A DNA stretch of 36,800 bases from Nanobdellati archaeon (GTDB lineage: Archaea > Nanobdellota > Nanobdellia > Woesearchaeales > JAADFO01). A model generated the notes under the pieces. The model was not told the DNA's origin. It worked only from the letters and a program-made list of their open reading frames with translations, and did no database searches. Below are positions 16,406-34,939 of this stretch, piece after piece. The first letter of the stretch is position 1. Every line of letters begins with the position of its first letter. The stretch spans positions 1 through 36,800 of the forward strand of contig JAADFO010000028.1 in NCBI GenBank assembly GCA_013152815.1, in the 5' to 3' direction. A program made the position numbers and the translations under genes.

Positions 16406-16759
16406 CTATGAGGCGCGCGTCCGTCGACGGTGATGGATGATCGTCTGTGGAGGAGGTGGAGATGCAGGTTCCACAACAGACGTCTGGACCGCTTTCTTTG
16501 CTGGTCGGGCGACTTTCGCATTCTTTGTCGTCTCCTTCATCTCTGCATTCTCCTCCGGAAGCGCAGCATTGCTCATGATGACGATCTTCTGGGCAGGCAG
16601 CTCTTTCGGGTCGGTGATCGCGGCAACGTTCTGGGCGGGCAATTCCCTGACCAGACGATCATCTTTGGCCAAGGTCCCCGAGACGATGATGTTGCCCACT
16701 ACAAAGAAGAAGACTATCAGCGCGATGCCCACTGAAATGCGCAGTCTCTTGAATCTCAT
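16406..16759 (-). CDS. Single-TM protein with Pro/Ala/Lys-rich linker and C-terminal RTRAS; candidate flavinylation substrate
   Basis: ATGA-coupled to the reductase; MRFKRLR plus TM, 2x ELPAQ, PASPPPP, ends HHRRRTRAS*. The function is inferred. Confidence 0.75.
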   Translation of the reverse strand: MRFKRLRISVGIALIVFFFVVGNIIVSGTLAKDDRLVRELPAQNVAAITDPKELPAQKIVIMSNAALPEENAEMKETTKNAKVARPAKKAVQTSVVEPASPPPPQTIIHHRRRTRAS

Positions 16760-18072
16760 CTGAAATCGAACGCCTCCTCATGGATGTGGCTTCTCCGCAC
16801 CCCGCTTGCCAGAAGCCCTTTGATGATGCCTTCTTTGAACCCTGTCGGTCCGCAGAGGAAGAACTGCTTCTTCTTCAGTGTTCCGCAGACATCACGGACG
16901 GTCTGCGCGGTCATCCTTCCCTGCCTGTGTGATATCCACGGGATGAAGCTGAACCGGGACACCCGTCTGTCGATCTCTGAGAAGAGCGCGCCTCCGATAA
17001 GGTCTTCCTGTCGCTTCACCGAATAGAAGAAGAGGATGCTGCCTTCCAAAGGCGTCCCTGTAAGGGTGATGTCCCTGGCCATTCCAAGGAACGGAGTGAC
17101 GCCGATCCCGCCCGCGATCCATACTCGTTCATCTTGACCATATCTCTTGTGGTCGAATCGCCCGTAGGGGCCCTCTACCGAGACCTTGTCCCCTTCCCTG
17201 AGATGGACAAGTTTTCTGGTGTAGTCACCCAGCTCCTTGACCACGACGACGATGTCATGATCATCCGATCCGGACGCGATGGAGAAGGGATGCGCCTCCT
17301 TCGGGATCTGCTCGTTGTAGAACCGGAGGAAGATGAACTGTCCTGCCTTGTAGGACAGGGGCTTGTGTTCAGGGGTGATGGTGATCTCGAAGATGTCTTT
17401 CTTCCGTCGTATCGACTTGACCGCATAGACCGCGTTCTTGAAGAGCCTGTTCTTGATGAAAAGGCTGTAGGAAAATCCGAACAGGCCGATCGCCGCGACC
17501 ACCGACGCATAGGCATAATAGCCGGCGAAGATGTCATCCTGGGAGATGGTCCCTCTCACAAGGAAGATATGGAGAACCGTGAGGAGGAACATGAGCCCCA
17601 TGAACTCATGGGTGAATTTCCAGCGGTCATACCTCATCTTGGTGAAGAGCGTGATGAAGAGCAAGACGACCATGCCGAGCAGGGCGATGATGCCGAGATT
17701 GACGCTCCAGGAGGAACTGGGAAGAAGATAGGCCGCGGCCTGGTCCATCCTAGACGGGACAAACTTCAGCACCAGGAAGATGGGATGGGCCAGGATGAGT
17801 ATCAAGGCGGTCCCTCCCAGGATCCCATGCGTCATGTACACCCTGTCCAGCCCGCCGAAGACATCTTCGATCCAGGAGATCCGCGCTGAAAGGAGGAAGG
17901 TGAGGGCGAACATGGTCATGGCCACCAGTCCGAACAGCTCTCCCAGGCTATGGGTGATGGAAGCATAGTCGACAAACTCTCGGGTCCCCGGGCCCCATCT
18001 CATCCAGAGAAATACAGGGATCAGTGAGATGAGCAACAATGCTGTCCATCCGGCAGCCGGCTTTGTCCTCAT
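16756..18072 (-). CDS. Ferric reductase-like transmembrane domain plus FAD/NAD(P)H-binding FNR domain (NOX-like)
   Basis: Heme-ligand His pairs (YMTH...LAH; FTH...VLH), GQFIFL, HPFSIAS, VEGPYG, IAGGIGVTPF, LCGP, EEAFDFR. Confidence 0.92.
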   Translation of the reverse strand: MRTKPAAGWTALLLISLIPVFLWMRWGPGTREFVDYASITHSLGELFGLVAMTMFALTFLLSARISWIEDVFGGLDRVYMTHGILGGTALILILAHPIFLVLKFVPSRMDQAAAYLLPSSSWSVNLGIIALLGMVVLLFITLFTKMRYDRWKFTHEFMGLMFLLTVLHIFLVRGTISQDDIFAGYYAYASVVAAIGLFGFSYSLFIKNRLFKNAVYAVKSIRRKKDIFEITITPEHKPLSYKAGQFIFLRFYNEQIPKEAHPFSIASGSDDHDIVVVVKELGDYTRKLVHLREGDKVSVEGPYGRFDHKRYGQDERVWIAGGIGVTPFLGMARDITLTGTPLEGSILFFYSVKRQEDLIGGALFSEIDRRVSRFSFIPWISHRQGRMTAQTVRDVCGTLKKKQFFLCGPTGFKEGIIKGLLASGVRRSHIHEEAFDFR

Positions 18073-18932
18073 ATCTTTCCCTCTTCGATGATCTCCTCAA
18101 AGCCGTTGAGCATGCTCAGGGTACTGTCTTTTCTGACCACCAACGCCCGCACGTCGGGTCGCCCATCAAGGAGAGACTTCCTCTCTTCATCCGATGTGGT
18201 GAACAGGGCGGTCGCATACACATCTGCCTCTTCGGCGGTGGGTGCCACCACGGTGACTGAGGTCGCGTCCTTCTGGTTGACGATATGAGACAGCCCGAAC
18301 TCTCCCACATATTGATGATAGTCTCCTGAGGTCGCGACAGCCTGGTCCTTCAGCCTGATGGAGCAGATGCTCTGTTCCTCCCGCGGATGCTGTATCCCCA
18401 GGACATGGACCTGTCCGCCCTTCACGCAGATATCTCCCCTTGCATCGATGAGAAAAGCGGTGATTCCCCTCTGCTGCAGCGCCTCTGCCAGCCTGTCAAC
18501 CATGTATCCTTTGGCGATGCTTCCCAGATCGACGAGGACGTCCGGATGGGTCAACGTCACCTCATCCCCTTCTATTCGGATATCCTCGTAGGAGCATCCC
18601 TGTTCTGCGCTCTCGCCCTTCTTGCGCAGGAGAATGATCCTTCCCAACGTTACATCATAGCTTCCCCGGGTCTTCCTGCTGAACAGCAGTGCCTTCTGCA
18701 GCACATCCAGCAGTTCTCCAGAGACCCTGGCCTTCCTGGCCTGGTTGAGCCTGGAGAGTTCGCTCCAGGGGTCATAGATGTTGAAGATCCTCTGCAGACG
18801 CAGAGCCTCCCTGTAGACGTCTTTCATCACTTCTTCAACCGGATGTTGAGATGCACCATAGACCAGAAAATCTATCTTTCCTCCGAAAAGCTCTTTGCTG
18901 ACGGTGATCGGCCCTGTTCTCGACAGTGTCAT
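18069..18932 (-). CDS. apbE: FAD:protein FMN transferase (ApbE family), no signal peptide
   Basis: SELSRLN, GSYDVTLG, DLGSIAKGYMVD, GIQHPR, ATSGDY, SHIVN, SVTVVAPTAEEADVYATAL. Confidence 0.92.
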   Translation of the reverse strand: MTLSRTGPITVSKELFGGKIDFLVYGASQHPVEEVMKDVYREALRLQRIFNIYDPWSELSRLNQARKARVSGELLDVLQKALLFSRKTRGSYDVTLGRIILLRKKGESAEQGCSYEDIRIEGDEVTLTHPDVLVDLGSIAKGYMVDRLAEALQQRGITAFLIDARGDICVKGGQVHVLGIQHPREEQSICSIRLKDQAVATSGDYHQYVGEFGLSHIVNQKDATSVTVVAPTAEEADVYATALFTTSDEERKSLLDGRPDVRALVVRKDSTLSMLNGFEEIIEEGKI

Positions 18933-18942
18933 CTCTCATCAT

Positions 18943-20679
18943 TCATCGAGAAACTTTCTTAAATCTTGTGGAACTGCCTTTCCTGAGCCTGCTCCCTGCC
19001 CGGTCCAGCGCGGCCATGCTCTCCTCGTGTTCTTTGATGAATGCGGCCACCTCGCCCCGGTGTCTCTCCTGCTCCTCCATCCCCCGGGTCACTGCCTGGT
19101 CGATGTTCTGGACGACCTTGCCGATCCGTGCATCCATGGTCTCTATGAATCCGAATGCGCTGTTGTTGAGGCGCTCCAGGAAATCGGACCGGATCCTGCC
19201 GGCGTTCATGTCCAGCTGCTGGGCGACATTCCCCTCGATTTGCTTCCAGAGCATCTTCCTGAAGGCGAACTTCGGCATCAGGAGCCTGAGCTCGTCGCCA
19301 AGAAGACGGAACATCTCATCTATCCTGTAATCCAGGGCGCTCTCCAGGGTGAAGACGTCCCCTGTCGGCAGATGCCCGATGTCTGTCTCGAAGAGGGTGG
19401 AAGAACGCTCCCTGATCCTCTCGATAAGACCGTTGGTCGTCTCGGAGAACCGTCTCACGATGTTCTCGAAACGTCCTCGGACCTTCTTCTCTTCCTCGGC
19501 TCTCCATGGTTCGAAGAACTCCTGCATCATCCCGAGGTACATCCTCTGGACGTGTTCCAGAAGCTGTCTGTTCGAAGACCCTGCCATCTTCCGGTAGGCC
19601 TTTCTCAGCTTCTCCAGCAAAGGTGCATGGTTCTTCTTCATGAATGCCCGGAGGTCTTCATCCAGCATCTCCATGATCCTTTCGATCTCTGCCCTGATGA
19701 GCGGTGCTGCGTCCTGCTGCTCCTCCCTGATCCTTCTCGCCGTCTCCCTGAACGCTTCACGTCTTCGTCCGGTCTCTTCAAGGGGCATCTGCGCCACCCT
19801 GATGCTGAGCGCATGGGCATTCCTCGCCTCTTCGACGATGCCCAGCAGACGCCTGTTCAGCGATTGCAGGAGTATCTCCCCTTTCTCTTCCAGGAAGAAG
19901 GCGGACAGGATATCCTTGAATCCTTCGATGTTGCTCGACGTTTTCTTCCCGTTGAGCGCGAGCTTCGCCGAGACCGGCGAGATGGCGACGGGTTCGCCGA
20001 GCTCCTTCTCCAGGGTCCTGCTGTTGAACCCGACGATCTCCTCCTGTTCTCCGGACGACAGATAGTCGATCTTGTTCAGCACGAAGAAGATCTTCGGGAC
20101 CTCTCTCTTCACCTCTTTGAGGAAGTCTATCTCGTTCTGGCTTACCGGCGGGTCTGCCGAGAGCAGGAAGATGGCTGCATCGATACGCTTCAGATACCCA
20201 TAGGTCATGGCCGTGTTATGGAGAAAGGTCGAGCCGATGCCGGGTGTGTCTATGAGGGAGATGCCTTCCTGGAGGTAGGGTGAAGGATGACCTATCTTAA
20301 CGAGCAATACCTGCTTCTGGTTCTTCGGGTTCTCCTTCTCGGTGATGTAGGCGTGAAGCTTATCGAGGGTGATGATCTTCTCGGTCCTGTCAAGGAAGAT
20401 GACCCGGATGTTCTCCTCTTCCGCATAGCTGATGATGGTGATGATCGATGTGAGCGGGACGATGGCCGTGGGAAGGAGCGCTTTTCCCAGCAGGGCGTTG
20501 ATGAAGGAGGTCTTCCCCCTCTTGAACTGTCCCACCACTGCCAGGTTGAACTTCCCTTTGCTGAGCTTGTCCTTGAGGGTGTCGAGTTCCTTTCTCTCCT
20601 CCGGACCGTCGACCAGCTTCCTGATGCGGTCTATCTGTTCCTCGACCAGCCTCGTCTGCATCCCGTATCGGTCGGTCAT
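18943..20679 (-). CDS. Bacterial-type dynamin-like GTPase
   Basis: G1 GQFKRGKT, G2 LPTAIVPLTS, G3 DTPG, G4 NKID, PVSAK, long helical C-terminal stalk; start at ATG 20679 coupled (ATGA) to the upstream stop. Confidence 0.9.
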   Translation of the reverse strand: MTDRYGMQTRLVEEQIDRIRKLVDGPEERKELDTLKDKLSKGKFNLAVVGQFKRGKTSFINALLGKALLPTAIVPLTSIITIISYAEEENIRVIFLDRTEKIITLDKLHAYITEKENPKNQKQVLLVKIGHPSPYLQEGISLIDTPGIGSTFLHNTAMTYGYLKRIDAAIFLLSADPPVSQNEIDFLKEVKREVPKIFFVLNKIDYLSSGEQEEIVGFNSRTLEKELGEPVAISPVSAKLALNGKKTSSNIEGFKDILSAFFLEEKGEILLQSLNRRLLGIVEEARNAHALSIRVAQMPLEETGRRREAFRETARRIREEQQDAAPLIRAEIERIMEMLDEDLRAFMKKNHAPLLEKLRKAYRKMAGSSNRQLLEHVQRMYLGMMQEFFEPWRAEEEKKVRGRFENIVRRFSETTNGLIERIRERSSTLFETDIGHLPTGDVFTLESALDYRIDEMFRLLGDELRLLMPKFAFRKMLWKQIEGNVAQQLDMNAGRIRSDFLERLNNSAFGFIETMDARIGKVVQNIDQAVTRGMEEQERHRGEVAAFIKEHEESMAALDRAGSRLRKGSSTRFKKVSR

Positions 20680-21509
20680 CCTGCTCGACGCTCCTCGCTG
20701 CCTTTTGTTGCTCCTTCCTTGTCGCTCAACCATTTCAGTATCCTTATCGCATGATAGGTCGATTCCAGCGTCGGTACCGTCGTGCTCTGCCTGCCGAAAC
20801 CGCCGTTCTTTGCCCTGCACCGTTCCACGAACCGGATACATGCCTGTTCCTTTTCCGGCCGTTGCCCCAGTTCGACGAGCGCTTCGACCGCAAGGCAGGT
20901 CTCTTCCAGAAAGGACGGCGCTCCCTTCTCGGTGAACGAGAATCCGCCATCATGCCCCTGGAACCGCTTGATGCGCCGGGCCATACTGGCCATGGCCATG
21001 CCATCATCCAGGATTCCCTGTCTCCTGTCGGCTATCGCTGCATAGCAAAGATCGCTGAGGAGATCCTCTTCTCCGGCGATGCCTGCGTCCTGGTTCTTGA
21101 AGCTTTGCTTTCTGAGGGAGCGCTTCAATGCCGGATCCTCGACGATGCTCAGGATCTTTGCTCGGTAATAGGCTGTCTGCGGTCCGATACGCTTCTTCCT
21201 TGACAGGTCTCTTGACAGGGCCATTGTCAGAGTCTCTGGCTCAGGCCATAGGGTATGCATCCGGTGTGTCCTGGCCAGATGCGCCAACCGGTAGAGCTGC
21301 TTCACCTGGCGAGTCTTCACTGAACGCAGGAAGTCCTCGGCATGATCTTCCATGCCCGATATCTCCAGCTCATGGGCTATCCGGAGGGCGAAATAGGTGT
21401 CCTCCAATGTGGCCGGCGCTTCATGGGCAAAGCTGAAGCCACCGTCCTTCTGCCTGCGCGCGAGGAGGAAGCGGCGGATGCTTGTCCTGTCTATGATGTC
21501 CTTACCCAT
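20676..21509 (-). CDS. Prenyltransferase/squalene-cyclase repeat (alpha/alpha barrel) protein
   Basis: Three repeats: RQKDGGFSF...TLEDTYFAL; FQGHDGGFSF...LEETCLAV; CRAKNGGFG...TLESTYHAI. AGGTGA RBS before ATG 21509. Confidence 0.82.
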   Translation of the reverse strand: MGKDIIDRTSIRRFLLARRQKDGGFSFAHEAPATLEDTYFALRIAHELEISGMEDHAEDFLRSVKTRQVKQLYRLAHLARTHRMHTLWPEPETLTMALSRDLSRKKRIGPQTAYYRAKILSIVEDPALKRSLRKQSFKNQDAGIAGEEDLLSDLCYAAIADRRQGILDDGMAMASMARRIKRFQGHDGGFSFTEKGAPSFLEETCLAVEALVELGQRPEKEQACIRFVERCRAKNGGFGRQSTTVPTLESTYHAIRILKWLSDKEGATKGSEERRAG

Positions 21510-21518
21510 GTCTGTCAC

Positions 21519-21956
21519 CTATCCGGATGGCTTCCCTCTGATGATCCTGCTGCTTGTTATCCTCTCGATGCCTTCAAAGATGTCTTGATATGCCTGTGCG
21601 CAGGCCATGATATCTTCTTTGCCTTCTCTCATCCTGTTCCCGTTGATGGCTGCATAGGCTTTCTGCATCCTCTTCTGGAGCAGGGAAAGGTCTGCATGAA
21701 TCCCGATGAATTCCGGCAGGGTCTTTCTCAGGAACTCTGTCCTGAAGAGGGCCATCTCCAGGAGGCTTTTGGCTTTCACCATGAGACCGAAGAAGGTGAA
21801 CTGGAAATATCTGAAGTGCTTTATCCGCGGGTTCAGATAGGCGAGGTCCAAGTTCTCGCAGATGTCTGAAAGGATGCCCAGAAGGTCATTGAGGCTGTTG
21901 CTCTTGATCAAGAGATCCAGCAGCTGTCCCTGGTCCTGTCTCCTGTTGCCCATCAT
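21519..21956 (-). CDS. Hypothetical all-helical protein
   Basis: ORF coupled (TGATG) to the upstream gene and abutting the RBS of the downstream gene. Confidence 0.65.
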   Translation of the reverse strand: MMGNRRQDQGQLLDLLIKSNSLNDLLGILSDICENLDLAYLNPRIKHFRYFQFTFFGLMVKAKSLLEMALFRTEFLRKTLPEFIGIHADLSLLQKRMQKAYAAINGNRMREGKEDIMACAQAYQDIFEGIERITSSRIIRGKPSG

Positions 21957-22228
21957 CACACCAACCGGAACATCACCTGGAAGATGATGACCACGATGGC
22001 TGTCATCGCCACTCCCATGATGGTCGCGTTCTTCACGCTCAGGGCGATCCTTTTCTGCCTCTCCATCTTGGGGAAGTGCAGATAGGTCTGAAGAAAGGTC
22101 ATGATCCCGATGATTGTTCCGCCAATCACTCCAAACGCCATCTCGATCAGATATGCCTGCACAGGCTTCACCCTTAAGAAGAAGTCATCAGCTGAAGCGG
22201 TTTTAGCGTGAGCCGAGGCGGACTTCAT
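21956..22228 (-). CDS. Small 2-TM membrane protein, first gene of the minus-strand run
   Basis: ATATATAAAG box at about 22255-22264 on the minus strand and ATG at 22228; two hydrophobic segments flank YLHFPKMERQKR. Confidence 0.65.
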   Translation of the reverse strand: MKSASAHAKTASADDFFLRVKPVQAYLIEMAFGVIGGTIIGIMTFLQTYLHFPKMERQKRIALSVKNATIMGVAMTAIVVIIFQVMFRLV

Positions 22229-22431
22229 CACCTTCCATCCCTGACTGGTGTCCGCTTTATATATTTTGCTTTCTTCAGGGTCAATATGGGCGCCTATGCC
22301 GCGGTCTCCTTTAGTCTTATTGTGATATTCCTTTCTCTTCTTAAAAGAATAGCTAAGATTTATAAAGAGTGACACAACTATGCCACCCAAATATTATTGA
22401 TTTGTGCTTTAAACACGGAGTGTGAAAAACA

Positions 22432-22593
22432 ATGGATTATGGCAGAGATGGTTTCAGAGGAAGCCAGGGCCCCAAAGAGATGCATAAGGCAGTCTGCGCC
22501 GATTGCGGCAATGAATGTGAAGTCCCTTTCAAGCCGTCAGGAGACAGGCCTGTCTACTGCAGAGACTGTTTCAGAAAACACAAGAAGTTTTAG
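22432..22593 (+). CDS. CxxC-x17-CxxC zinc-ribbon domain protein (53 aa; not in ORF track)
   Basis: Hand translation: MDYGRDGFRGSQGPKEMHKAVCADCGNECEVPFKPSGDRPVYCRDCFRKHKKF*; GGAGTGTGA RBS, TTTATAAA box at about 22359, T-tract downstream. Confidence 0.93.
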   Translation: MDYGRDGFRGSQGPKEMHKAVCADCGNECEVPFKPSGDRPVYCRDCFRKHKKF

Positions 22594-22619
22594 GATCATA
22601 TTTCTTGGTATGTCTCTGG

Positions 22620-22640
22620 TTTTTTGTTTTTTTTCTTTTC
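22620..22640 (+). terminator. Oligo-T archaeal terminator after the CxxC-x17-CxxC gene
   Basis: Near-pure T run about 27 nt after the stop codon. Confidence 0.6.
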
Positions 22641-22726
22641 TAGCCCGACCTTTTCAGAGATCATATCCCTCAAAGCAGATCGTTCTCCACAAGGTTTATA
22701 ATGACTGTCCGTCGCCCATCCATGCC

Positions 22727-23167
22727 ATGCTGAGCAGATATGTCGACTACACCCGGCTGAAAGAGGCCAACAGGAAAGCACTGAAGGGCCTGTGGAACAT
22801 GCTTCCTCTCCTCCTGGGTGTCCTGCTGCTCGTCAGCATGATGACCGTCCTCGTCCCCAGGTCAGCCTATGGCATCCTCTTCAACGGCAACCTCCTCTGG
22901 GATTCCATCATGGGAAGTCTTCTCGGAAGCATCCTCACAGGAAATCCGGTCACCAGCTACATCATCGGCGCCGGTTTCCTCGACAATGGCATCAGCATCA
23001 TCGCAGTCACCTCTTTTATCGCAGCCTGGACCACGGTGGGCTTCGTGCAGCTGCCCGTCGAATCCATGGTCCTGGGCAAGCGGTTCGCCCTCGCACGGAA
23101 TGTCAGCGCATTCCTCATGTCCATCATCGTCGGCATGGTGACTGCGCTCATCATTGGTGTGCTCTGA
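22727..23167 (+). CDS. Permease, DUF318/ArsP-like subunit 1
   Basis: ATG 22727 about 25 nt after AAGGTTTATAA; GSILTGNPVTSY, FIAAWTTVG..QLPVE...LGKRFALARN. Confidence 0.8.
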   Translation: MLSRYVDYTRLKEANRKALKGLWNMLPLLLGVLLLVSMMTVLVPRSAYGILFNGNLLWDSIMGSLLGSILTGNPVTSYIIGAGFLDNGISIIAVTSFIAAWTTVGFVQLPVESMVLGKRFALARNVSAFLMSIIVGMVTALIIGVL

Positions 23168-23219
23168 AGTACCCGTATGAAGTACTAGTATGAAGCACCC
23201 GTGCAATCATTGAACGCCC

Positions 23220-23753
23220 ATGGAAAAAAAGACACGATCCGGCTTGAAAAAGAACGGAAGAGGGTATTTCCTGCTGGCCAGCATCACCCTTTATCTCTTG
23301 ACATTCTTCTTCTCTCCTGACCGCATGATGCCCATACTTGAGTCCTATCTCAAGCTCATCCTGCAGATACTGCCCATCTTCATCATCGTCTATGCGTTCA
23401 TGGTCCTGATAGACTATCTTGTCACCGAGGACCTGCTCAAGCATATGATGGGAAAAGAAGCAGGCATCAGGGGTTGGTTCATCGCCATCGTGACCGGCAT
23501 CATCTCTGTCGGGCCGGTCTATGTATGGTATCCTCTGCTCAGGAACCTGCAGAAGCGCGGCATCAGGGTAAGGTTCCTCTCCACATTCCTCTACAATCGG
23601 GGCATCAAGCTCCAGTGGGCATCCCTGCTGATCCTCTATTTTGGATGGACCTATACCCTCGTCCTCCTGACGGTCATGGCCGTCTTCTCCATACCACAGG
23701 GACTCATCACCGAACGCTTCACCATGCTCTCGAAAAAGAAGGGCGCCTCCTGA
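23220..23753 (+). CDS. Permease, DUF318/ArsP-like subunit 2
   Basis: MGKEAGIRGW, GIISVGPVYVWYPLLRNL, FLYNRGIK; multiple TM segments. Confidence 0.8.
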   Translation: MEKKTRSGLKKNGRGYFLLASITLYLLTFFFSPDRMMPILESYLKLILQILPIFIIVYAFMVLIDYLVTEDLLKHMMGKEAGIRGWFIAIVTGIISVGPVYVWYPLLRNLQKRGIRVRFLSTFLYNRGIKLQWASLLILYFGWTYTLVLLTVMAVFSIPQGLITERFTMLSKKKGAS

Positions 23754-23779
23754 GAATGGATGTGTCCGTTGTGATGCTG

Positions 23780-23818
23780 AAAAAATGAAAAAAAAGAAAA
23801 ATAGGAAAAAAAGAAAAA
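23780..23818 (-). terminator. Oligo-T terminator downstream of the cold-shock gene
   Basis: A-runs on the + strand (T-runs on the - strand) about 30 nt past the csp stop. Confidence 0.55.
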
Positions 23819-23848
23819 GGGTTGTGGACCCGAAATCATGAAGTAGGA

Positions 23849-24040
23849 TCACTCCTTCTTGACCTTGACCGCTTTCGGACCTCTGTCTCCTTGTTCTCCT
23901 TCGAACTCGACAGCGTCGTTCTCGTCCAGCGATGTGCCTTCCTGCAGTTCAGACTGGTGCACAAAATATTCTTTGCCGTCTTCTCCAGCGATGAAGCCAA
24001 ATCCCTTCATGTTGTTGAAGAATTTAACTGTTCCTTTCAT
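23849..24040 (-). CDS. csp: Cold-shock domain protein
   Basis: MKGTVKFFN..KGFGFI (RNP1), YFVHQS (RNP2), GDRGPKAVKV; GGAGGTGA RBS. Confidence 0.96.
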   Translation of the reverse strand: MKGTVKFFNNMKGFGFIAGEDGKEYFVHQSELQEGTSLDENDAVEFEGEQGDRGPKAVKVKKE

Positions 24041-24224
24041 GTTCTCACCTCCTTCCGTTCATTCTGTGATTTGTCTTTTGGTTGACCATAAAATCATGTT
24101 CCTGGTGGTTTCTTGGTTCTTATCAGCATTCATCAGAAATAGTCAATCTTGCCTGGTACATTGTCCTGTTGTACGAAAAGAGTGAAAGCATCCTGATTCT
24201 TAGACAGGGAAGTGGAACTCCCTT

Positions 24225-24248
24225 TTTAAATGCTTCTGTTTCTGAGGC
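24225..24248 (-). promoter_or_regulatory. Putative BRE-TATA promoter of csp
   Basis: GCCTCAGAAACAGAAGCATTTAAA on the minus strand; near-identical to the element upstream of fur. Confidence 0.5.
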
Positions 24249-24392
24249 GTTCTGGCCGTTCCTGGCGGGAAGGGCTGATGAAATCCTGCAAGAATGTGCC
24301 CGATACATGACCTACTCCATCGACGATGCTCAGCAACAAGTTGCTGGCACCAAAGGGAACCGTATACGTTGCATACGAACCCCGTCGATCAC

Positions 24393-24397
24393 NNNNN
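24393..24397. other. Assembly gap (5 N)
   Basis: nnnnn in the sequence. Confidence 1.
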
Positions 24398-24543
24398 GTC
24401 TGGCCAGCCATCATTGTCCTCCTTTCAGTCGGAAATGCTGACATTGATGGCGCAGACGATCATGCATCTGGCAAAAAAGCAGAGGATTTCATAATGGCCA
24501 CGGGAAGATAAAGTTTATAAGCTCTTCAGGTTCCTATGTCGGG

Positions 24544-25797
24544 ATGCTTTCCCGGAAGAAGAACAACAATGTCATCTATGAGCTTCTGTCATCTCCACGG
24601 AAGAGGCTCTCTCATTTTCGGGATGTGCCGGCGAACAAGCAGGGGTTCATCCTGCTGAGCCTCTCCAAGAAGCTGCAGATAGAGGTCATGCACGCGCTCA
24701 AGATAACAGAGGTCGTCAGGCTCATAGAATATCTCGACCCTGATGAGGCCACCGACCTGCTCCAGAGCCTCTCTGCTGCGAGGAGGAAGCGGATCCTCAA
24801 ACGTCTCAGCAAGAGCATCAAGGAGAAGGTGGAGTTCCTCCTGCGTTTCGACCCCAGGACAGCGGCAGGTCTCATGAGCCTGGATTACATCGAGGTCAGC
24901 CAGCACATCAACTTCGAGCATCTCTCCCGCATCGTCCGTAAGCATGAACAGAAAGGCGGGAAGATACCGACCATCCTCATCGTCGAGGACGGGTTCCTCC
25001 TGGGAGAGCTGCCGCTCTATAGCCTCGCCCTCGCCAGACGGAACGAGCGCATCAGGAACTACATCGAGAAGGTCCCTTCCATCAGATACGACGTGGATGA
25101 GACCGAGGTCATCTCCCTCTTCCGCAAACACCCCCACAACAAGGTCGTGGTCCTGGACGAGGACAACAGCATCATGGGCATCATCTACTCCGATGACGTG
25201 CTCAAGCTCATCGAGAAACGGTCGGCCACCCATCTCCGTGACTTTGCCGGTATCAGGCAGGAAGAGGACGTCCTGGACTCTGCCCTGATGAAGGTGAAGT
25301 ACCGCTACAAGTGGTTGATCATCAACCTGGCGACTGCATTCCTCGCCGCTTCGGTCGTGAGTCTCTTCCAGAAGACCATCTCGTCCTTCGTGCTCCTCGC
25401 AGTCTACATGCCCATCGTCGCCGGCATGGGAGGCAATGCAGGGACCCAGACCCTCGCGGTGATGGTAAGAGGGATGACCCTGAAGGAGATCAACAGGAAG
25501 ACCGCCAGGAAAGTCATCCTGAACGAGGTCATCGCAGGCGGAACGAACGGTCTGATCAACGGCATCCTGGTGGCGGCTGTCGCTGTCCTCTGGAACAAGA
25601 ATCCCCTGCTCGGCCTCATCATCGGCATGGCCATGATCATCAACCTCGTCATCGCAGGATTCTTCGGAGCCGTCACTCCGCTCATCATGAGAAAGTTCGG
25701 GAAAGACCCTGCATCCTCTGCGACCATCTTCATCACGACAGCGACCGATGTCTTCGGCTTCTTCGTCTTCCTGGGGCTGGCGACCATCATGCTGTGA
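24544..25797 (+). CDS. mgtE: Magnesium transporter MgtE
   Basis: LDPDEATDLL, TAAGLM, CBS pair, RYKWLIINL, MPIVAGMGGNAGTQ, DPASSATIFITTATDVFG. Confidence 0.95.
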   Translation: MLSRKKNNNVIYELLSSPRKRLSHFRDVPANKQGFILLSLSKKLQIEVMHALKITEVVRLIEYLDPDEATDLLQSLSAARRKRILKRLSKSIKEKVEFLLRFDPRTAAGLMSLDYIEVSQHINFEHLSRIVRKHEQKGGKIPTILIVEDGFLLGELPLYSLALARRNERIRNYIEKVPSIRYDVDETEVISLFRKHPHNKVVVLDEDNSIMGIIYSDDVLKLIEKRSATHLRDFAGIRQEEDVLDSALMKVKYRYKWLIINLATAFLAASVVSLFQKTISSFVLLAVYMPIVAGMGGNAGTQTLAVMVRGMTLKEINRKTARKVILNEVIAGGTNGLINGILVAAVAVLWNKNPLLGLIIGMAMIINLVIAGFFGAVTPLIMRKFGKDPASSATIFITTATDVFGFFVFLGLATIML

Positions 25798-25868
25798 CTG
25801 CTGTGAATGTTGTGAGTGTCCTCGGGAGCAGAAGGGCCTGGAAGAAAGGGCTCGGGGTCTGAGGCTGA

Positions 25869-26291
25869 TCAGGTTGGTGTCTCCCGGCTTTCCTCCACCT
25901 CCAGCACCAGGACTTCTTTCCCCCGCTGCTCTGCCTGTTCTGTCAGCTGCTCGATGCGTGCCATGATAAGCTGTTGTTCATCTTTCCTTCCGGTCTCCTG
26001 TTCCAGGAGGTCTCTGAACGGTGATATGAGCAGGATGTCGTATCCCTGGTGCTGTTCGTTGCCTTCCCACGTCTCCAGCTGGCCTATCAGTTCATCGACG
26101 CGTCCGATCTTTTCTATGAACAGGCTGTCCACAAGGAACGGAAGATCCTTCTCATGGAAGAGGTATGATGATCTGTTGTCAGAGCAGTCCAGGAAGAGCG
26201 TCCGTTTCTTCTGGAGGATCTTCGCGGTGATGGTGTCTGCAAGAAGGGTGTCACAGGCTTTCCTGTCCTTGGCTTTGAGTGTCGTTGCCAT
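25869..26291 (-). CDS. Hypothetical protein, possibly a degenerate RecA-like fold without Walker A
   Basis: RTLFLDC...SLFIEKI...DILLIS...EVLVL strand pattern; no P-loop. Confidence 0.55.
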   Translation of the reverse strand: MATTLKAKDRKACDTLLADTITAKILQKKRTLFLDCSDNRSSYLFHEKDLPFLVDSLFIEKIGRVDELIGQLETWEGNEQHQGYDILLISPFRDLLEQETGRKDEQQLIMARIEQLTEQAEQRGKEVLVLEVEESRETPT

Positions 26292-26427
26292 GGATGTATG
26301 ACCTGGGGCGAGCAATAAATATGCTGTGGGCAGATGTCTAGTGGGGTGTGCCCTGAAGACCGTGTTCCTTGTTCCCTGTCAGGCCGGTCGCGAACAATTT
26401 ATATATCTCGATGACCCCGGAAACTCC

Positions 26428-26994
26428 ATGAAGCGGTTCCTCTTCAACAGGGCATTGCGGATATTGCTCGTCACCAATGGTCTGGTTTTGCTTGCCGGTG
26501 CCATGCTGGGTCCTATCTACGCCCTTTTTGTCGAGCATATCGGCGGCGACCTTCTGGATGCCAGCCTGACCGGAGGCTTTTTCGCTTTGGCAGCAGGAGT
26601 GACCACCCTGGTTGCCGGAAGATTTGCAGACAAGAAGAAAAGAGATGAACTGATAGTCGCTTTCGGCTATGCTGTGATGGGGATAGGATTTCTTCTGTAT
26701 CTCTTCGTGGATTCCATCTGGTCATTGTTCGGCGTGCAGATCCTGGTCGGTTTTGCTGAGGCGTTCTACTCTCCTGCTTTCGATGCGCTCTACTCGAAAC
26801 ACATCACCAAAAGAAAGGCCGGCAGAGAATGGGGCGCGTGGGAGTCGATGAATTATTTCTCCATCGCCGTCGGTGCTGTATTAGGAGGTCTGATAGCGAG
26901 CAATCTCGGATTCGACGCGATCTTCCTCTTCATGTCTGCTCTCTGCTTCCTGAGCGCGTTTGCTGTCCTTCACCTGCAGAGAGGAACGCTCTGA
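26428..26994 (+). CDS. Half-size (about 6 TM) MFS-family protein
   Basis: ATG 26428 after ATTTATATAT; motif A-like GRFADKKKR, AFYSPAFDAL, GREWGAW, GAVLGG; 188 aa. Confidence 0.82.
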   Translation: MKRFLFNRALRILLVTNGLVLLAGAMLGPIYALFVEHIGGDLLDASLTGGFFALAAGVTTLVAGRFADKKKRDELIVAFGYAVMGIGFLLYLFVDSIWSLFGVQILVGFAEAFYSPAFDALYSKHITKRKAGREWGAWESMNYFSIAVGAVLGGLIASNLGFDAIFLFMSALCFLSAFAVLHLQRGTL

Positions 26995-27058
26995 TTCGTG
27001 CGATGGTTTCATGCCCCGCGCTTTAGCGCGTGAAACCTTTGCACAGCCTGATTTCTGC

Positions 27059-29179
27059 TCATCCTTTCAGGAACAGCAGATAGAGTCTGCCGTCAGTGAA
27101 GAAGAGATCGCCGGTGAAATTGCTCCCCAACTTCGGCTTCACGAATTCCTGTTTTTTTGTGGTGGCTATCATGCCTGTCCTTTTCAGATCCCTGAAGAGG
27201 AATTCTCTTTCGGTGTCGATATCAGGGTTTATCCTGTGGGTGACTCCCCATTTGATGCCGCTGTCGAAACTGGCGGTCCCGACGTAGATATGCTCTCCAT
27301 CCGGGGTGACATACGCTGTCTTCCAGAGACGTGCATGATGTCGTGTGCGGACGTTGTTCTCCTTTGTCTCTTTCTCAAAACCGAAGTCATGCACCTCTGA
27401 ATTCCAGAAATCCGGCGTCATGGGAGCCTGCGGATACGGCTCTTTCAATAAAGCGGCTTTCGCTGCCTTGTAGACACTGAATATGTCCACCTTATCGGCC
27501 AAGGTCCAGTCGGCCTTCGCAAAGAGATCGATGAGTTGTTGGTCGTCCTTGGCGACGATGATGAGACTGAGGGGTTCCTGCCTGTTGCCCAGCAACGTCT
27601 CTGTGTATCTTGACTGCTCTGTCCGGAAGATGGTCATGATGTCATCGACAGAGACGGTCTGTGCCTCGGTCGATATCGGAGCAGGGATCTGATCAGGGAT
27701 CTGATACTGAAGCGCGAAGAGAACATAAAATCCGATCGCCAGGACGATGATGCCGGCGGTCGCAAGGAGTCTTCTCGTGTCTGCCCGAACGACACGTCTC
27801 TTCTTTCTCCTGGAGAGCAGATATTCGGACAGGCTCATGCCGATGATCAGCCAGATCGCGCCGACCAGATATCCGCCCCAGACATCGCTCAGATAATGGA
27901 CACCAAGATAGAGCCTGCTGAACCCGACGAGCAGTATGATGAGCAGGCCGGCAAAGAATATGTTGATCTTATATCTCCACTTCCGGGTGTTGCGTATCAC
28001 ACAGTATGCGAGGAAGCCGTAGAAGGCGACGGCGATGGCGGCATGTCCGCTGGGGAAGGAATAGGACTGCTCTGTATAGAACGCCACCGCTGGTCTCGCA
28101 CGACGGATGATAATCTTCCCGATGAAGGTGAATGCTTCACTGCCCGCAAGCGTGAGCAGAAACGGAACAACATGGGTTCGTCTCTTCCAGAACCATAACA
28201 GGAAAAGGAAGGCGATGGTGAAGCTGAGGATGACCTGCCATTTGCCGAGCAACGTTATCCAGAAGAAGAAGCTTGTCACGTCTGTGCTCCTGAAGACAGC
28301 GAGCAGATTGGCGACGCGGATATCGACAGAGACGATGAGGTCGGAACGGATAATGTCCTCGACGATCCCTCCGAACAAGGCCACCGTATAGAACAGGGCC
28401 AGAGAGAGGAGGGTGAGAGGCAGACCATAGAAATCATCCTTGTCCAGGCGTTTCCGTGACCAGGAGAAAAATCGTTCATGCCTGGCGGTGAACGCTTTGA
28501 TGCCTGGATCCTCCATGAGGGCTTGTCTTACCGACAGCCAGAGCGAGGAGAGGAACGAGAAGAACTCCTTCCCTTTCCTGACAAGGAGGGTCCTGAGGAC
28601 ATAGGACAGGAGGAACAGGACCAGAAGGATGGTCAGGAAGAACCCGGTACGGGTCAGCCATATCTTCGCGACGGCGAGAGACCGGGCGAAGAAATATCCG
28701 GGCAGGATCCAGACGAGACTCCAGCCGATCGCTCCGAGCGTGTTCCAGACCATGAAAGGCAATCGTCTCATGCCGAAGGTCCCTGCAGTCAGAGGGATCA
28801 CCTCTTTTATGCTGGGTATGAAGCGGCCTATAAAGACACTTTTTGGACCGTGTCTCTCAAAGAACGCTTCTCCTTTCTTGAAATGCGCAGGTTTGATGAA
28901 CCAGAAACCCTTCTTGAATATCCTTGCACCATATCTCTTTCCGATGATATAATTGATGTTGTCTCCGATGATTGCGCCGATCACGGCGAACCAGAGAAGA
29001 TCACCCAGATCAAGATAGCCTTTGGCCGCCAATGCACCCATGAGGAGGAGGATGGTGGAACCGGGTATGAGCAGACCGACGCCGATCGTCGTCTCAAGCG
29101 CCGCCACCAGAAGGGCGATCCAATAGCTGATTATAGGGAAGTGCTCTATCGCCGGCAGCAATGATTGTATGAATGTCAT
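27059..29179 (-). CDS. DedA/VTT + PAP2 phosphatase + LssY C-terminal domain fusion
   Basis: DedA motifs LETTIGVGLLIPG, GDNINY, GRFIP; PAP2 motifs K...RARP, SFPSGH, SRLYLGVHYLSDV; LssY_C motifs EPLSL, RHHARLW, THRINPDIDTERE. Confidence 0.9.
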   Translation of the reverse strand: MTFIQSLLPAIEHFPIISYWIALLVAALETTIGVGLLIPGSTILLLMGALAAKGYLDLGDLLWFAVIGAIIGDNINYIIGKRYGARIFKKGFWFIKPAHFKKGEAFFERHGPKSVFIGRFIPSIKEVIPLTAGTFGMRRLPFMVWNTLGAIGWSLVWILPGYFFARSLAVAKIWLTRTGFFLTILLVLFLLSYVLRTLLVRKGKEFFSFLSSLWLSVRQALMEDPGIKAFTARHERFFSWSRKRLDKDDFYGLPLTLLSLALFYTVALFGGIVEDIIRSDLIVSVDIRVANLLAVFRSTDVTSFFFWITLLGKWQVILSFTIAFLFLLWFWKRRTHVVPFLLTLAGSEAFTFIGKIIIRRARPAVAFYTEQSYSFPSGHAAIAVAFYGFLAYCVIRNTRKWRYKINIFFAGLLIILLVGFSRLYLGVHYLSDVWGGYLVGAIWLIIGMSLSEYLLSRRKKRRVVRADTRRLLATAGIIVLAIGFYVLFALQYQIPDQIPAPISTEAQTVSVDDIMTIFRTEQSRYTETLLGNRQEPLSLIIVAKDDQQLIDLFAKADWTLADKVDIFSVYKAAKAALLKEPYPQAPMTPDFWNSEVHDFGFEKETKENNVRTRHHARLWKTAYVTPDGEHIYVGTASFDSGIKWGVTHRINPDIDTEREFLFRDLKRTGMIATTKKQEFVKPKLGSNFTGDLFFTDGRLYLLFLKG

Positions 29180-29353
29180 GGTTCCTGTGATATGACTGCG
29201 GTTATATCGTCATAGTATATAAAAAGGCACAGTAAGTGCAGTATATGCGAGCAGGGCATCCTATGCTCAAAAGATTTCCATTCTTGAGCAGGCATCACCG
29301 GACAAGGCTGCTGCCGATGAGATCATGCATCGCAGACCCAGTCCTCTGCAGGA

Positions 29354-29632
29354 TCAGCCCAGACCGTAGGAATCGACAAAACCTCTGATCATCTTATAAT
29401 CGTTCAGATACTGATGGCCCTTGTCTGTGAGCTCATAGTATTTCTTCTGTTTCTTGTCCTCTTTCTCGATCATGAACCCTTTTCCGATCAGTTCCCCGAC
29501 ATATTTCACAAGCATCTGGTGTGAGAGGTTTGATTTATAGAGTATATGGGTCTGTCTGACCAACCCTGCCTTCCTCCGTATGGTGTTCAATATGTCATGT
29601 ATGATCTCAAGGTGATCACGCTTCTTGTTCAT
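29354..29632 (-). CDS. Archaeal winged-helix transcriptional regulator
   Basis: MNKKRDHLEIIHDIL...THILYKSNLS...YELTDKG; ATGA-coupled to the upstream membrane gene. Confidence 0.88.
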   Translation of the reverse strand: MNKKRDHLEIIHDILNTIRRKAGLVRQTHILYKSNLSHQMLVKYVGELIGKGFMIEKEDKKQKKYYELTDKGHQYLNDYKMIRGFVDSYGLG

Positions 29633-30291
29633 CTTTTCCGCACCAGGTAGAGGTTGAGAAGTATGAGCGAATAGGCGACCAGTTCCAGCACATGTCCTAT
29701 CGCATAGAACGCCCGGTGGTCCACGGCCATGAGAAAATGCACGCTTCCGAAAAGCATGAAGAGGAAGGCCACGGCTATGAGCAACGTCTTCTTCTGCCTG
29801 TTCTGCAGATAGTTGGTGATGAAATGCCAGGATATGAACATCAGATAGATCGTCGAGAACAGAAAGAACATATACAGCGTATTCATGCTCAGGAAGATCC
29901 CCAGCAAGGAGGTTGCGATCAGCAGCCAGAGTATCCTGCTCTTCTCTGTCTTGAACGTCATGTAGACGAGCGTCACAAGACCAAGGGTCATGAAGAGGAT
30001 GTGCGCATACAGACCGACGGCATCGAACCACGCGATGGATCGGATCTTCAACGCCCTGCAGATATGCTCGTTCGCTTTCGAGATGATGAGATAATTGAAG
30101 AGGGATTGTATGAGATATGCCAGGGATATGCAGGCGAAAGACGCTCCGAAGAGCCTGATCTGCTTCTGACCGGTCGCCTTGTATATCCTGAACGCGAAGA
30201 TCGAGACCATAAGTGCGATCGCCGCAAACAACAGTTCAAGGACCACATCATATCCGAAGAACCAGGAGGGGGAGAGATAGGTCAGGGACAT
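29629..30291 (-). CDS. Multi-pass (6-7 TM) membrane protein of unknown function
   Basis: 220 aa, strongly hydrophobic; CTTAAAT-type box about 20 nt upstream. Confidence 0.8.
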   Translation of the reverse strand: MSLTYLSPSWFFGYDVVLELLFAAIALMVSIFAFRIYKATGQKQIRLFGASFACISLAYLIQSLFNYLIISKANEHICRALKIRSIAWFDAVGLYAHILFMTLGLVTLVYMTFKTEKSRILWLLIATSLLGIFLSMNTLYMFFLFSTIYLMFISWHFITNYLQNRQKKTLLIAVAFLFMLFGSVHFLMAVDHRAFYAIGHVLELVAYSLILLNLYLVRKR

Positions 30292-30316
30292 GGTGTCCTT
30301 ACTGTCCTTAAATGCC

Positions 30317-30340
30317 TTTTTTAAAGTTTTTTAAAGTTTT
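30317..30340. repeat. Tandem TTTTTTAAAG x2 (third partial copy at about 30384-30394)
   Basis: Read directly in the divergent promoter region. Confidence 0.75.
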
Positions 30341-30427
30341 GGGCGTTTATCCCGGATTCGTCTCCGTCGTGCCCAGGGTCCTCTTTTTAAAGTTTCAGTA
30401 GGTCTCCTACCGCAGGTATTTAAGGGA

Positions 30428-30449
30428 CATATGTTCTCCATAGCATATG
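30428..30449 (+). promoter_or_regulatory. Putative ArsR/SmtB operator CATATG-N10-CATATG
   Basis: Inverted repeat between the TATTTAAG box and the arsR start codon; spacing matches the ATATG-N10-CAnAT pattern of SmtB/CzrA boxes. Confidence 0.6.
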
Positions 30450-30758
30450 ATAAAGCGAGCATACGACCTGTTCCTGACGACCCTTGCGAACATGAACCGG
30501 CTCAAGATCATCAGTTCACTGAGGCGTAAGAACCTCAATGTCGGTGAGATCCTTACTGAGACCGGCCTGAACCAGACGACGGTCTCCCATAACCTGAATC
30601 GGCTGAAGACCTGTGGTTTTGTGACCGTCGAACAGAAAGGCAGGTACAGGTATTATCAGCTGAATAAAGAGACCATCACTCCCTTGTTGGATATCATCGA
30701 TAAGCATGTGAAGAACAATTGCAGAAACGTTATCGCAAAAAAGAACCGGCAGAGGTGA
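30447..30758 (+). CDS. ArsR/SmtB-family metalloregulator
   Basis: LANMNRLKII, NVGEI...LNQTTVSHNLNRLKTCGFV..EQKGRYRYYQL; C-terminal DKHVKNNC. Confidence 0.9.
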   Translation: MIKRAYDLFLTTLANMNRLKIISSLRRKNLNVGEILTETGLNQTTVSHNLNRLKTCGFVTVEQKGRYRYYQLNKETITPLLDIIDKHVKNNCRNVIAKKNRQR

Positions 30759-30763
30759 TGAGG

Positions 30764-30973
30764 ATGTATTATATAGAGCACATGGGCTATCTCGGATGGT
30801 TCTGGATGATCCTGTTCTGGGGAGCCTTCATCTGGCTTATCGTCTGGCTGGTGGACAAGAACAAGGACACGAAGAAAGACAAGACCCCCTCGCAGATCGC
30901 GAAAGAGCGGTATGCGAAAGGAGAACTGACAAAGAAAGAATATCAGGACATCAGCAAGGAGATCAGGGAGTAG
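30764..30973 (+). CDS. Small TM + SHOCT domain protein
   Basis: GWFWMILFWGAFIWLIVWLV, then IAKERYAKGELTKKEY; GAGGTGA RBS (ATG 30758 is the alternative). Confidence 0.88.
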   Translation: MYYIEHMGYLGWFWMILFWGAFIWLIVWLVDKNKDTKKDKTPSQIAKERYAKGELTKKEYQDISKEIRE

Positions 30974-31029
30974 CGTTTCGTAAAGAGCGCTGCCTTGGTC
31001 TGCGGCACTGCCTGAGGAGGTTGATCAAG

Positions 31030-31293
31030 ATGGCTGAAGGATTACGATTGGATGCTTTGGGATTGGGATACGCCGCTGCCGTCGTCTCGGCAGCATCCAT
31101 GCTCCTGCTGGGGATCGCAGGAAACATCGGCGTGTACACCGGCGCCGTGGCCATGATGCAGCAATGGCATATGTTCTTCTCCCTGGGTCTGCTTGGGATA
31201 GTCGCCGGGATGATAGAGGCTGCGATCATCGGTTTTGTGTTCATATATGCGTTTGGCCTGCTCTATAATGGATTCATAGGGCGGCGGAGGTAA
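31030..31293 (+). CDS. Small membrane protein (DUF5676-like) with MMQQWHM motif
   Basis: GGAGGTTGA RBS; two hydrophobic helices, ending LYN. Confidence 0.7.
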   Translation: MAEGLRLDALGLGYAAAVVSAASMLLLGIAGNIGVYTGAVAMMQQWHMFFSLGLLGIVAGMIEAAIIGFVFIYAFGLLYNGFIGRRR

Positions 31294-31682
31294 TGAAGAT
31301 GGAATACAAATATAAGAAGGAGCTCACCCTCCCCTATGCTGAGGCAGTGGAAAAGGTGAAAGATGAGTTGGGCAAAGAAGGGTTCGGCATCTTGACCGAG
31401 ATCGATGTCAGGGAGACCTTGAAGAATAAGCTTGACGTGGACATGGACCCCTATGTGATCCTGGGGGCGTGCAATCCGCCCAATGCACACCGGTCTCTTC
31501 AGGCAGAGCAGGATATCGGATTGATGCTGCCCTGCAATGTCATCGTCTACGAGAAGGACAAGAAGACCTATGTCTCGGCCATCCTCCCGACGGTCGCGAT
31601 GGGGATGATAGAGAACGCCGATCTCAAGGACGTCGCTCACCTGATAGAGGCCAAACTCAAGAAGGCGATGGATGCCGTCTGA
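31293..31682 (+). CDS. DUF302 domain protein
   Basis: GFGILTEIDV..TLK.KL, YVILGACNP, IGLMLPCNVIVYE. Confidence 0.92.
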   Translation: MKMEYKYKKELTLPYAEAVEKVKDELGKEGFGILTEIDVRETLKNKLDVDMDPYVILGACNPPNAHRSLQAEQDIGLMLPCNVIVYEKDKKTYVSAILPTVAMGMIENADLKDVAHLIEAKLKKAMDAV

Positions 31683-31796
31683 GACACCCCGCTGGGAAAC
31701 ATACCGAAACATATCTTGTTTTGATGGGCAGACCATGATGAGCAGAGGATCGTGGATGCCCTCTTTTTGCATCTGACCTGAGGAGGACAAAACAAA

Positions 31797-33914: not shown

Positions 33915-34009
33915 AGAAAGCCAGGGCAGGGGAGTTCAGTTCAAGAGATGTCCGCGGTGTCTATGGTCCCTGGACAGCGATTTCTGGTCCGATCCTAAGA
34001 CCGGGAGCA

Positions 34010-34108
34010 GAATAGAGAAAAATAAGAATATGAAAGAATAAAAAGAATGAATCAGAGAATGAATAGGAGAATGAATAAGAGAATAAATAAAAAAATAAAA
34101 AGATAAAC
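34010..34108. repeat. Purine-skewed imperfect GAATGAATAAGA-like repeat tract between convergent genes; probable terminator on the minus strand
   Basis: gaatgaatcaga gaatgaatagga gaatgaataaga gaataaataaaa (12-nt period). Confidence 0.65.
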
Positions 34109-34110
34109 GA

Positions 34111-34401
34111 TCAGTGTCTCTCTTCGAGGGCGGCCACGTCTCCGGTCTCAGCAAAAAGATACTCTTTGAGTTCCTTCGCGAAATGCCCGTCGTTCTGCCT
34201 GATCCATTCCAGGAGCATGGACGCGTGCTCTTTCTCTTCATTTGCGTTATGGACAAGGACCTTCTTGAGATTCTCGTCTGTGCATGCATCCGCTCTCTGA
34301 TTATACCAATCCACCGCTTCCAGCTCTTCTTTCAGGGAGTCGATGGCTCTCTTCATGTCCAGCGTCTTCTTGGAAAGCGCTGACCTGTCTTCATGCATCA
34401 T
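34111..34401 (-). CDS. Encapsulin-associated ferritin-like protein (EncFtn type)
   Basis: RAIDSLKEELEAVDWYNQRA...HNANEEKEHASMLLEWIR...LKEYLF; GAGGTG RBS before ATG 34401. Confidence 0.92.
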   Translation of the reverse strand: MMHEDRSALSKKTLDMKRAIDSLKEELEAVDWYNQRADACTDENLKKVLVHNANEEKEHASMLLEWIRQNDGHFAKELKEYLFAETGDVAALEERH

Positions 34402-34889: not shown

Positions 34890-34939
34890 CCGATGTCGGA
34901 TGACACTAGATGTTATTTAAATCTTCTGTTTCCTGAGGC
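34887..34939 (-). promoter_or_regulatory. fur promoter: BRE-TATA (34916-34939) and 7-2-7 inverted repeat CATCCGA-TG-TCGGATG (34887-34902)
   Basis: Read directly; the inverted repeat overlaps the start codon and the expected transcription start. Confidence 0.55.

Follow-up and report, generated by a model that had tools for sequence, protein, structure and literature searches.

A fluoride riboswitch in the leader of a dynamin-like GTPase gene and three uncharacterised genes in a Nanobdellati archaeon

A 36,800-nucleotide (nt) stretch of contig JAADFO010000028.1 (the window), from a Nanobdellati archaeon whose genome assembly comprises 1.49 Mb and is 90.8% complete, was found to carry a fluoride riboswitch aptamer ahead of four tightly spaced minus-strand genes, which encode a small protein with two transmembrane (2-TM) helices, a helical protein, an alpha/alpha-toroid 'barrel' protein and a dynamin-like GTPase. 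The aptamer lies between a TATA box and the first gene, and it recurs before relatives of these genes in many lineages. The operon is a fluoride-riboswitch regulon with four uncharacterised cargo genes and, judging from its sequence, is very probably under fluoride control. The chances appear slightly better than even that the four genes are made as fluoride accumulates, as seems likely, with the dynamin in a likely membrane-protective role. What relatives conserve is the switch and not the gene set; the four genes are mix-and-match cargo of one regulon and not a fixed four-part machine.

The clusters of genes adjacent to the relatives, which include MFS, Na+/H+ antiporter, USP, enolase, CrcB, DUF190 and HAD genes, suggested fluoride; the riboswitch was then found in the window with Rfam. 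An earlier note on this DNA had placed the genes behind one TATA box; the box was recovered, and the riboswitch between it and the genes had been missed. The archaeal TATA box (TATATAAA, positions 22256..22263, minus strand) is located 23 nt upstream of the first stem of the aptamer, and A/T boxes of a similar kind are located upstream of the aptamers of archaeal homologues. The aptamer (crcB motif, RF01734; 22172..22241, minus strand) matched the Rfam model with 39.9 bits against a gathering threshold of 34 (E 8.5e-8), and this was the only match in the 1.49 Mb searched; the control genomes of E. coli and B. subtilis had no RF01734 match. Given the presumed transcription start, the aptamer is part of the 5' leader, downstream of the TATA box and ahead of the first gene. 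In 38 copies, which had been selected as Rfam matches, 99.7% of 380 cells of P1 and the pseudoknot were paired (slid controls, 39-57%), and seven of the ten pairs covaried. The pseudoknot alone, which is not part of the Rfam structure line, was 100% paired in 38 copies, with four of its six pairs changing on both sides.

The leader is ordered as TATA box (22263-22256), P1 (from 22232), a likely Shine-Dalgarno sequence and a GTG start codon at 22162. The Shine-Dalgarno sequence, GGGTGA (22168..22173, minus strand, read 22173-22168), abuts the 3' end of the aptamer, and we infer its role from this placement. The start at 22228 that had been assigned to the 2-TM gene could not be retained: the ATG at this position is the conserved GAUG of the aptamer. 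In eight of nine other switch-led 2-TM loci examined, the GAUG ATG is not in the reading frame of the 2-TM gene, and the in-frame exception, locus L167, carries its own ATG and Shine-Dalgarno sequence. Because the GAUG is mostly out of frame and the homologues begin with M-Q-E/D-Y-L, the 2-TM gene likely starts at GTG 22162 and encodes 68 amino acids (aa) (21956..22162, minus strand). A scan for sigma-70 promoters and terminators, with archaeal U-tract termination outside its reach, detected no terminator-like site in the leader; control is therefore likely to be translational.

The coordinates of the open reading frames (ORFs) agree with the earlier description of four minus-strand genes that overlap or are separated by at most 9 nt. 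In their longest forms these ORFs extend over 21956-22228, 21519-21959, 20676-21518 and 18943-20679. The 2-TM and helical genes have a 2-nt gap or a 4-nt overlap and the helical and barrel genes are spaced by 9 or 0 nt, in each case according to the start chosen, while the barrel gene overlaps the GTPase gene by 4 nt. The genes have GC contents of 0.51-0.58, similar to the 0.53 of the genome.

Of 476 relatives of the dynamin found in 25 of the 64 parts of the genome collection, the best 80 were surveyed for an association with the switch, using a riboswitch model of our own that was built from 38 matches; 54 loci were outside its training set. This model placed a switch no more than 450 nt from the G1 codon in 49 of the 80 loci and a same-strand switch 0.9-7.9 kb upstream in 15 further loci, giving a same-strand upstream switch in 64 of 80 overall and in 38 of the 54 non-training loci. 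Rfam itself identified the switch in 18 of 20 loci picked as close, short or barrel-bearing and in nine of ten of the next ones, and confirmed four more upstream switches, with that of L108 below the cut-off. In a tree of the dynamins (FastTree, midpoint root, 89 rows), from which no donor was inferred, switch-led loci occurred throughout, and one clade accounted for 11 of the 16 negative loci. Neighbours among the 80 loci included one Na+/H+ antiporter cluster in 15 loci and a second in seven, MFS and USP (13 each), enolase (9), CrcB, DUF190 and HAD (6 each), as well as hydrogenase-4-like and MutS-domain genes, a set that matches documented fluoride gene lists (PMC2864571, PMC11139923 and PMC5533749, in the available parts of these papers). 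Hydrogenase-4/formate-hydrogenlyase-like operons adjoin the dynamin gene in L059, L068, L085 and L108. The carriers include a cultured organism, Desulfacinum hydrothermale (L042).

The dynamin gene often keeps its own switch with another one 1-4 kb away (e.g. L045, L046, L049, L088 and L100), a pattern indicative of selection to keep dynamin under fluoride control. These double switches also argue against the possibility that the switch is a general acid/ion-stress sensor on a mobile island and that the genes are carried along as passengers, without any specific function against fluoride. The passenger explanation would account for the patchy spread of the genes among 401 genomes of the same order, of which one has the dynamin subfamily, six the helical gene and four the single-domain barrel or its fragment, and for the variable gene order and the clade that retains dynamin without a switch, but on balance it is very unlikely.

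The GTPase (578 aa; 18943..20679, minus strand) has intact G1-G4 motifs (G1 GQFKRGKT at residues 50-57, G2 T77, G3 DTPG at 144-147 and G4 NKID at 202-205) and matched Pfam Dynamin_N with E 3e-29, the only Dynamin_N match in the genome. Solved bacterial dynamins, 2j68, 5owv and 6j72 among the structures, were matched with E 5.6e-24 to 1.5e-17. Beyond residue 300 no TM segment was found (best 19-residue hydropathy 0.48); an amphipathic segment with a conserved L468-P469 is located near residues 447-480. The motifs, the Dynamin_N match and the hydropathy bear out what had been read from the DNA, namely a single GTPase of this length with all four G motifs and no clear TM segment, and its assignment to a stress module also holds. 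A 632-aa form starting at 20841 was rejected, since the homologues begin near 20679. In the tree it falls in a small clade (support 0.947) together with proteins labelled Woesearchaeota, Methanofastidiosum and Methanocella. The source is probably a Woesearchaeota, since this label is borne by the best named matches of the barrel and helical proteins and by one of the two closest dynamin loci.

The established part of the mechanism proposed here is that fluoride enters as hydrogen fluoride (HF), acidifies the cytoplasm, drains the proton gradient with a fall in proton-motive force, and may end in lysis of the cell (PMC11139923). Mg-fluoride would then fold the aptamer, which would likely free the adjacent ribosome-binding site. 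The GTPase would bind the inner membrane face by its amphipathic trunk tip (447-480) and polymerise like BDLP and DynA, such that the polymer would limit leak and lysis under fluoride; in excerpts of the respective papers, BDLP is described as binding lipid via a paddle at its trunk tip (PMC2862293) and DynA as supporting membrane integrity (PMC8844932). The 2-TM and helical proteins would likely be paired at the membrane, and the barrel would act separately, as an enzyme or a binding protein whose site carries acidic and arginine residues. By analogy with the dynamin family, stabilisation of the membrane by the dynamin under fluoride is likely.

Alternatively, the GTPase itself might be the fluoride target, with metal-fluoride and GDP mimicking the transition state and the switch providing extra copies of an inhibited enzyme, or with fluoride locking the protein in active dimers. 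Extra copies of fluoride-inhibited enzymes such as enolase are a switch output documented in the available text of PMC11139923 and PMC5533749, GDP with aluminium fluoride yields a GTPase homodimer of the relative GBP1 (PMC2862293, in part), and G1-G4 are intact in the protein studied here. This explanation is nevertheless unlikely, as the GTPase is not a housekeeping protein, given its subfamily's presence in a single genome of the order, and the genome has no second Dynamin_N copy to be backed up. A role as an anti-virus dynamin system, DynA-like or of the LeoABC type, is extremely improbable. PADLOC matched LeoA (E 7.8e-16) and LeoBC (E 2.5e-9), and DynA delays phage lysis according to the excerpted text of PMC8844932, but the GTPase scored far under the NCBIfam cut-offs for DynA (73.5 against 1600), CrfC (27.2 against 1146) and LeoA (18.5 against 325), the genes that recur beside it belong to ion stress, and a defence system would have little reason to be controlled by fluoride.

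Several observations weigh against a fluoride-controlled operon with a membrane-protective dynamin. In the ligand-free fold, the Shine-Dalgarno sequence and the start codon lie in weak hairpins with no clear coupling to the aptamer. The complete four-gene order was present in no other locus surveyed, and a 322-aa relative of the barrel in genome G058 had no switch in the 9.6 kb searched. Sixteen of the 80 dynamin loci had no switch in the DNA searched, one genome of the switch-less clade had no switch match anywhere when it was searched, and the 80 loci are not independent, because they are rich in Nitrospirota and deltaproteobacteria. The membrane role is drawn by family analogy, since the identity with the solved dynamins is mostly within the G domain.

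The switch-less clade (L044, L056, L057, L061, L062, L069, L076, L086, L091, L104 and L109) offers a natural control for the case in which fluoride control has been lost. Its dynamin genes mostly sit between a lytic transglycosylase gene and housekeeping genes. Among the remaining negatives, two are near contig ends and L095 has no switch nearby; just beyond the boundary of L059 there is a switch at the head of a hydrogenase-4-like operon, and a similar switch-led operon is located on another contig of the genome of L068. An unfiltered search of eight switch-less loci returned nothing better than E 0.64, and a co-oriented switch was found in none of five more distant plasmid dynamin loci. In the cultured Lichenicola cladoniae (L170:2446-5512), a dynamin gene on a plasmid and a crcB-usp pair headed by a switch stand back to back.

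The 2-TM protein has two hydrophobic helices (hydropathy 1.85 and 2.34), as had been described before, and a conserved loop, F-L-x-T-Y-x-H-F-P-x-M; it belongs to no Pfam, NCBIfam or PADLOC family, and the atlas gave it no match above 0.87. The helical protein (144 aa; 21519..21953, minus strand; alternative GTG start at 21959; conserved YLNPRIKHFRYFQFTFFG) has 83 homologues besides itself with 44-70% identity and was modelled as a four-helix bundle (pLDDT 91), for which there was no Foldseek match at E<=0.001 and no named family in NCBIfam, PADLOC or the atlas. Nineteen of 24 helical-gene loci were switch-led (14 at the Rfam cut-off and five by our own models), and the other five were within 342 nt of a contig end; L015-L017 are close kin. 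Each of the six order genomes with the helical gene has a single switch match, in one case below the cut-off, that heads the unit. The helical gene was present in all 15 2-TM loci and adjacent in 14 of them, and both genes were absent from all of the 80 other dynamin loci. Because of this absence, the 2-TM protein is not a required recruiter of the dynamin. In L004 the 2-TM/helical pair is back to back with a dynamin gene under a separate switch, and on a single-contig Woesearchaeota chromosome dynamin and the pair are 14 kb apart with two separate switches.

It was also considered whether a small fluoride exporter or sink of a new type is built from the 2-TM and helical proteins and takes the place of Fluc/CLC-F in these archaea, the dynamin and barrel being extras. 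Neither Fluc nor CLC was matched in the operon or in the genome, at 90.8% completeness, or in any of eight helical-gene genomes tested. The presence of the helical gene in all of the 2-TM loci would fit such an exporter, as would the three of 150 order genomes with crcB, which have it behind a switch match and have no helical-gene match. On the other hand, CrcB was absent from 147 of the 150 order genomes (matched in three), as was CLC over the cut-off (also matched in three), and most of these genomes are incomplete; since absence is the background of the order, it is weak evidence in the helical-gene genomes. Several helical-gene operons also hold an MFS or Na+/H+ antiporter gene, the 2-TM protein had no CRCB match, and in four loci another uncharacterised gene precedes the helical gene instead of the 2-TM gene. 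An exporter of this kind is distinctly unlikely. Among the 49 genomes with a directly switch-led dynamin gene, CrcB was present in 14 and a gene of the CLC family, untyped as to CLC-F, in 37; 11 lacked both, and replacement of an exporter by dynamin was rejected as a general rule on these counts. A broader proposal, which also seems unlikely, is an exporter-independent fluoride defence common to bacteria and archaea, in which a dedicated dynamin subfamily, possibly with metal-fluoride in the active site as its switch, would reshape or seal the membrane under HF, and the 2-TM and four-helix pair would be a third prokaryotic outlet in Woesearchaeota lacking Fluc and CLC.

A family of approximately 140 aa with no clear Pfam match is located directly behind the switch, often replacing the 2-TM gene (L003:3096-3509, L012:447-875, L025:9054-9482 and L143:1063-1485), and a family resembling it was seen in the bacterial dynamin loci L041, L065, L080 and L084. 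A gene for a HerA-like ATPase of approximately 350 aa follows the operon of the helical gene in L006, L018 and L027. For L030 and L167 (genome G406), the neighbours in a record labelled 'uncultured Methanosarcinales archaeon' are 70-83% identical to a Woesearchaeota chromosome; the label of this record may be wrong, or the region may have been recently shared.

The barrel protein (277 aa; 20676..21509, minus strand; alternative start at 21518) contains the three (D/N)GGF repeats that had been noticed earlier and matched Pfam Prenyltrans with E 2.6e-11. Its family spans approximately 225-300 aa, and among the 132 full-length members in the set fetched, E36, D37, T38, S199, E202 and R240 are conserved. 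The best fold matches of the model, all weak, included Rab GGTase beta and a polysaccharide hydrolase as well as squalene-hopene-cyclase-like proteins; the family profile matched Rab GGTase beta with E 8e-9, and a single-sequence search of PDB returned no match. The earlier note had proposed an isoprenoid-lipid remodelling complex, in which the barrel would handle isoprenoid chains, by binding or transfer, with the 2-TM protein as recruiter of the dynamin, perhaps in contact with a host. The tight gene spacing, the GGTase match and the resemblance of the model to squalene-hopene-cyclase-like and GGTase folds are consistent with this proposal, as is the adjacency of barrel and dynamin genes in seven of the 80 loci, which is the part of the expected co-occurrence that was found. 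The zinc ligands of prenyltransferase beta subunits are Asp-x-Cys and His, and the catalytic motif of class II terpene cyclases is DxDD. In the 132 barrel members, the zinc-ligand positions, as placed from this motif and the repeat register, hold F/Y, E (89%) and S/A/Y, no His is conserved at 70%, and DxDD occurs in one member; the NCBIfam terpene cyclase score was 14.4 against 322.7. Glycoside hydrolases fit the barrel fold equally well. Most barrel-dynamin pairs are bacterial: five of the seven are deltaproteobacterial, Aquificales or Thermodesulfobacteriota and two are labelled 'bacterium' only, so that archaeal lipids are not the common thread. With the barrel adjoining dynamin in few of the 80 loci, the 2-TM gene in none of them and the zinc ligands lacking, an isoprenoid-transferring machine is unsupported and highly improbable, and what the loci have in common is fluoride-riboswitch control instead of symbiont-host contact.

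Twelve of 15 barrel loci were switch-led, two were cut by contig ends and one was without a switch, a count that is biased because most of these loci were found via other genes. The barrel gene follows the helical gene without dynamin in L007, L008, L011 and L025, and in a Methanocella genome it is located on another contig with its own switch; the single-contig Woesearchaeota chromosome with dynamin and the 2-TM/helical pair had no barrel match. Multi-repeat prenyltransferase-repeat proteins of 530-960 aa (four genomes) were regarded as distinct and left out of the barrel family. The barrel is split into two ORFs in L081:9725-10561 and is present as a fragment only in L027:12475-12762.

The aptamer in the 5' leader is of the same family as in known fluoride riboswitch regulons such as ppaC-uspA-eno-gpmA-crcB-orf5249 of Enterobacter cloacae FRM (PMC5533749, in part), and, as in these regulons, relatives of the genes lie in operons that also encode CrcB, enolase, USP, antiporters or HAD enzymes. 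Thermococcus kodakarensis TK0513 is an earlier archaeal case in which the gene behind such a switch is not crcB (PMC4247193). Unlike canonical fluoride operons, the four cargo genes include no known exporter and no known fluoride-inhibited enzyme. The GTPase has the Dynamin_N G domain and probably the long helical C-terminal part of Nostoc BDLP (2j68), the Campylobacter pair (5owv), mycobacterial IniA (6j72) and B. subtilis DynA, but in contrast to these it is single, has 578 aa and no TM hairpin, and lies behind a fluoride switch. The barrel has the GGF repeats and toroid fold of prenyltransferase beta and squalene-hopene-cyclase-like toroids, from which it differs in having only three repeats in approximately 255-280 aa and its own conserved acidic/arginine set.

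Dynamin and GTPase are not mentioned in the available sections of a 2024 review of fluoride (PMC11139923), the terms 'dynamin' and 'GTPase' are absent from the accessible main text of bioRxiv 10.64898/2026.10.21.760802, and eight supplements of PMC2864571 do not contain 'dynamin', 'COG0699' or 'COG1689'. The literature searched contained no link between the fluoride riboswitch and dynamin, Baker et al. 2012, whose gene tables could list these families, being outside the search, and it contained no paper on COG1689. From the sequence comparisons, the four genes are likely to be an undescribed, possibly membrane-protecting part of the microbial fluoride response. The riboswitch names a probable trigger for four protein families with no assigned role, and prokaryotic dynamins would gain a defined physiological cue, which most of them lack, so that their role becomes testable with sodium fluoride. 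Resistance genes beyond the exporters, which must exist according to the available part of the 2024 review (PMC11139923), have candidates here, and these bear on the engineering of organofluorine degradation.

The unit had been taken to end at 18943; the four genes stand, while the tight spacing continues beyond this position into apbE (18069-18932, minus strand), a ferric-reductase-like FAD-NAD oxidoreductase gene (16756-18072, minus strand) and an ORF for a 117-aa membrane-anchored protein (16406-16759, minus strand), with gaps of 10, -4 and -4 nt. These genes form a possible read-through tail (16406..18932, minus strand), which is outside the conserved switch-led set and absent from the relatives' loci surveyed. 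An apbE-reductase pair is also located near the switch-2TM-helical unit in L166 and L167, where it points away from this unit. The divergent side (22432-35000) is an ion and metal stress neighbourhood that includes genes for a zinc-finger microprotein, ArsP-type permeases, a cold-shock protein, MgtE, MFS, a DedA/PAP2/LssY protein, an ArsR regulator and a P-type ATPase; a few N letters occur near 24390.

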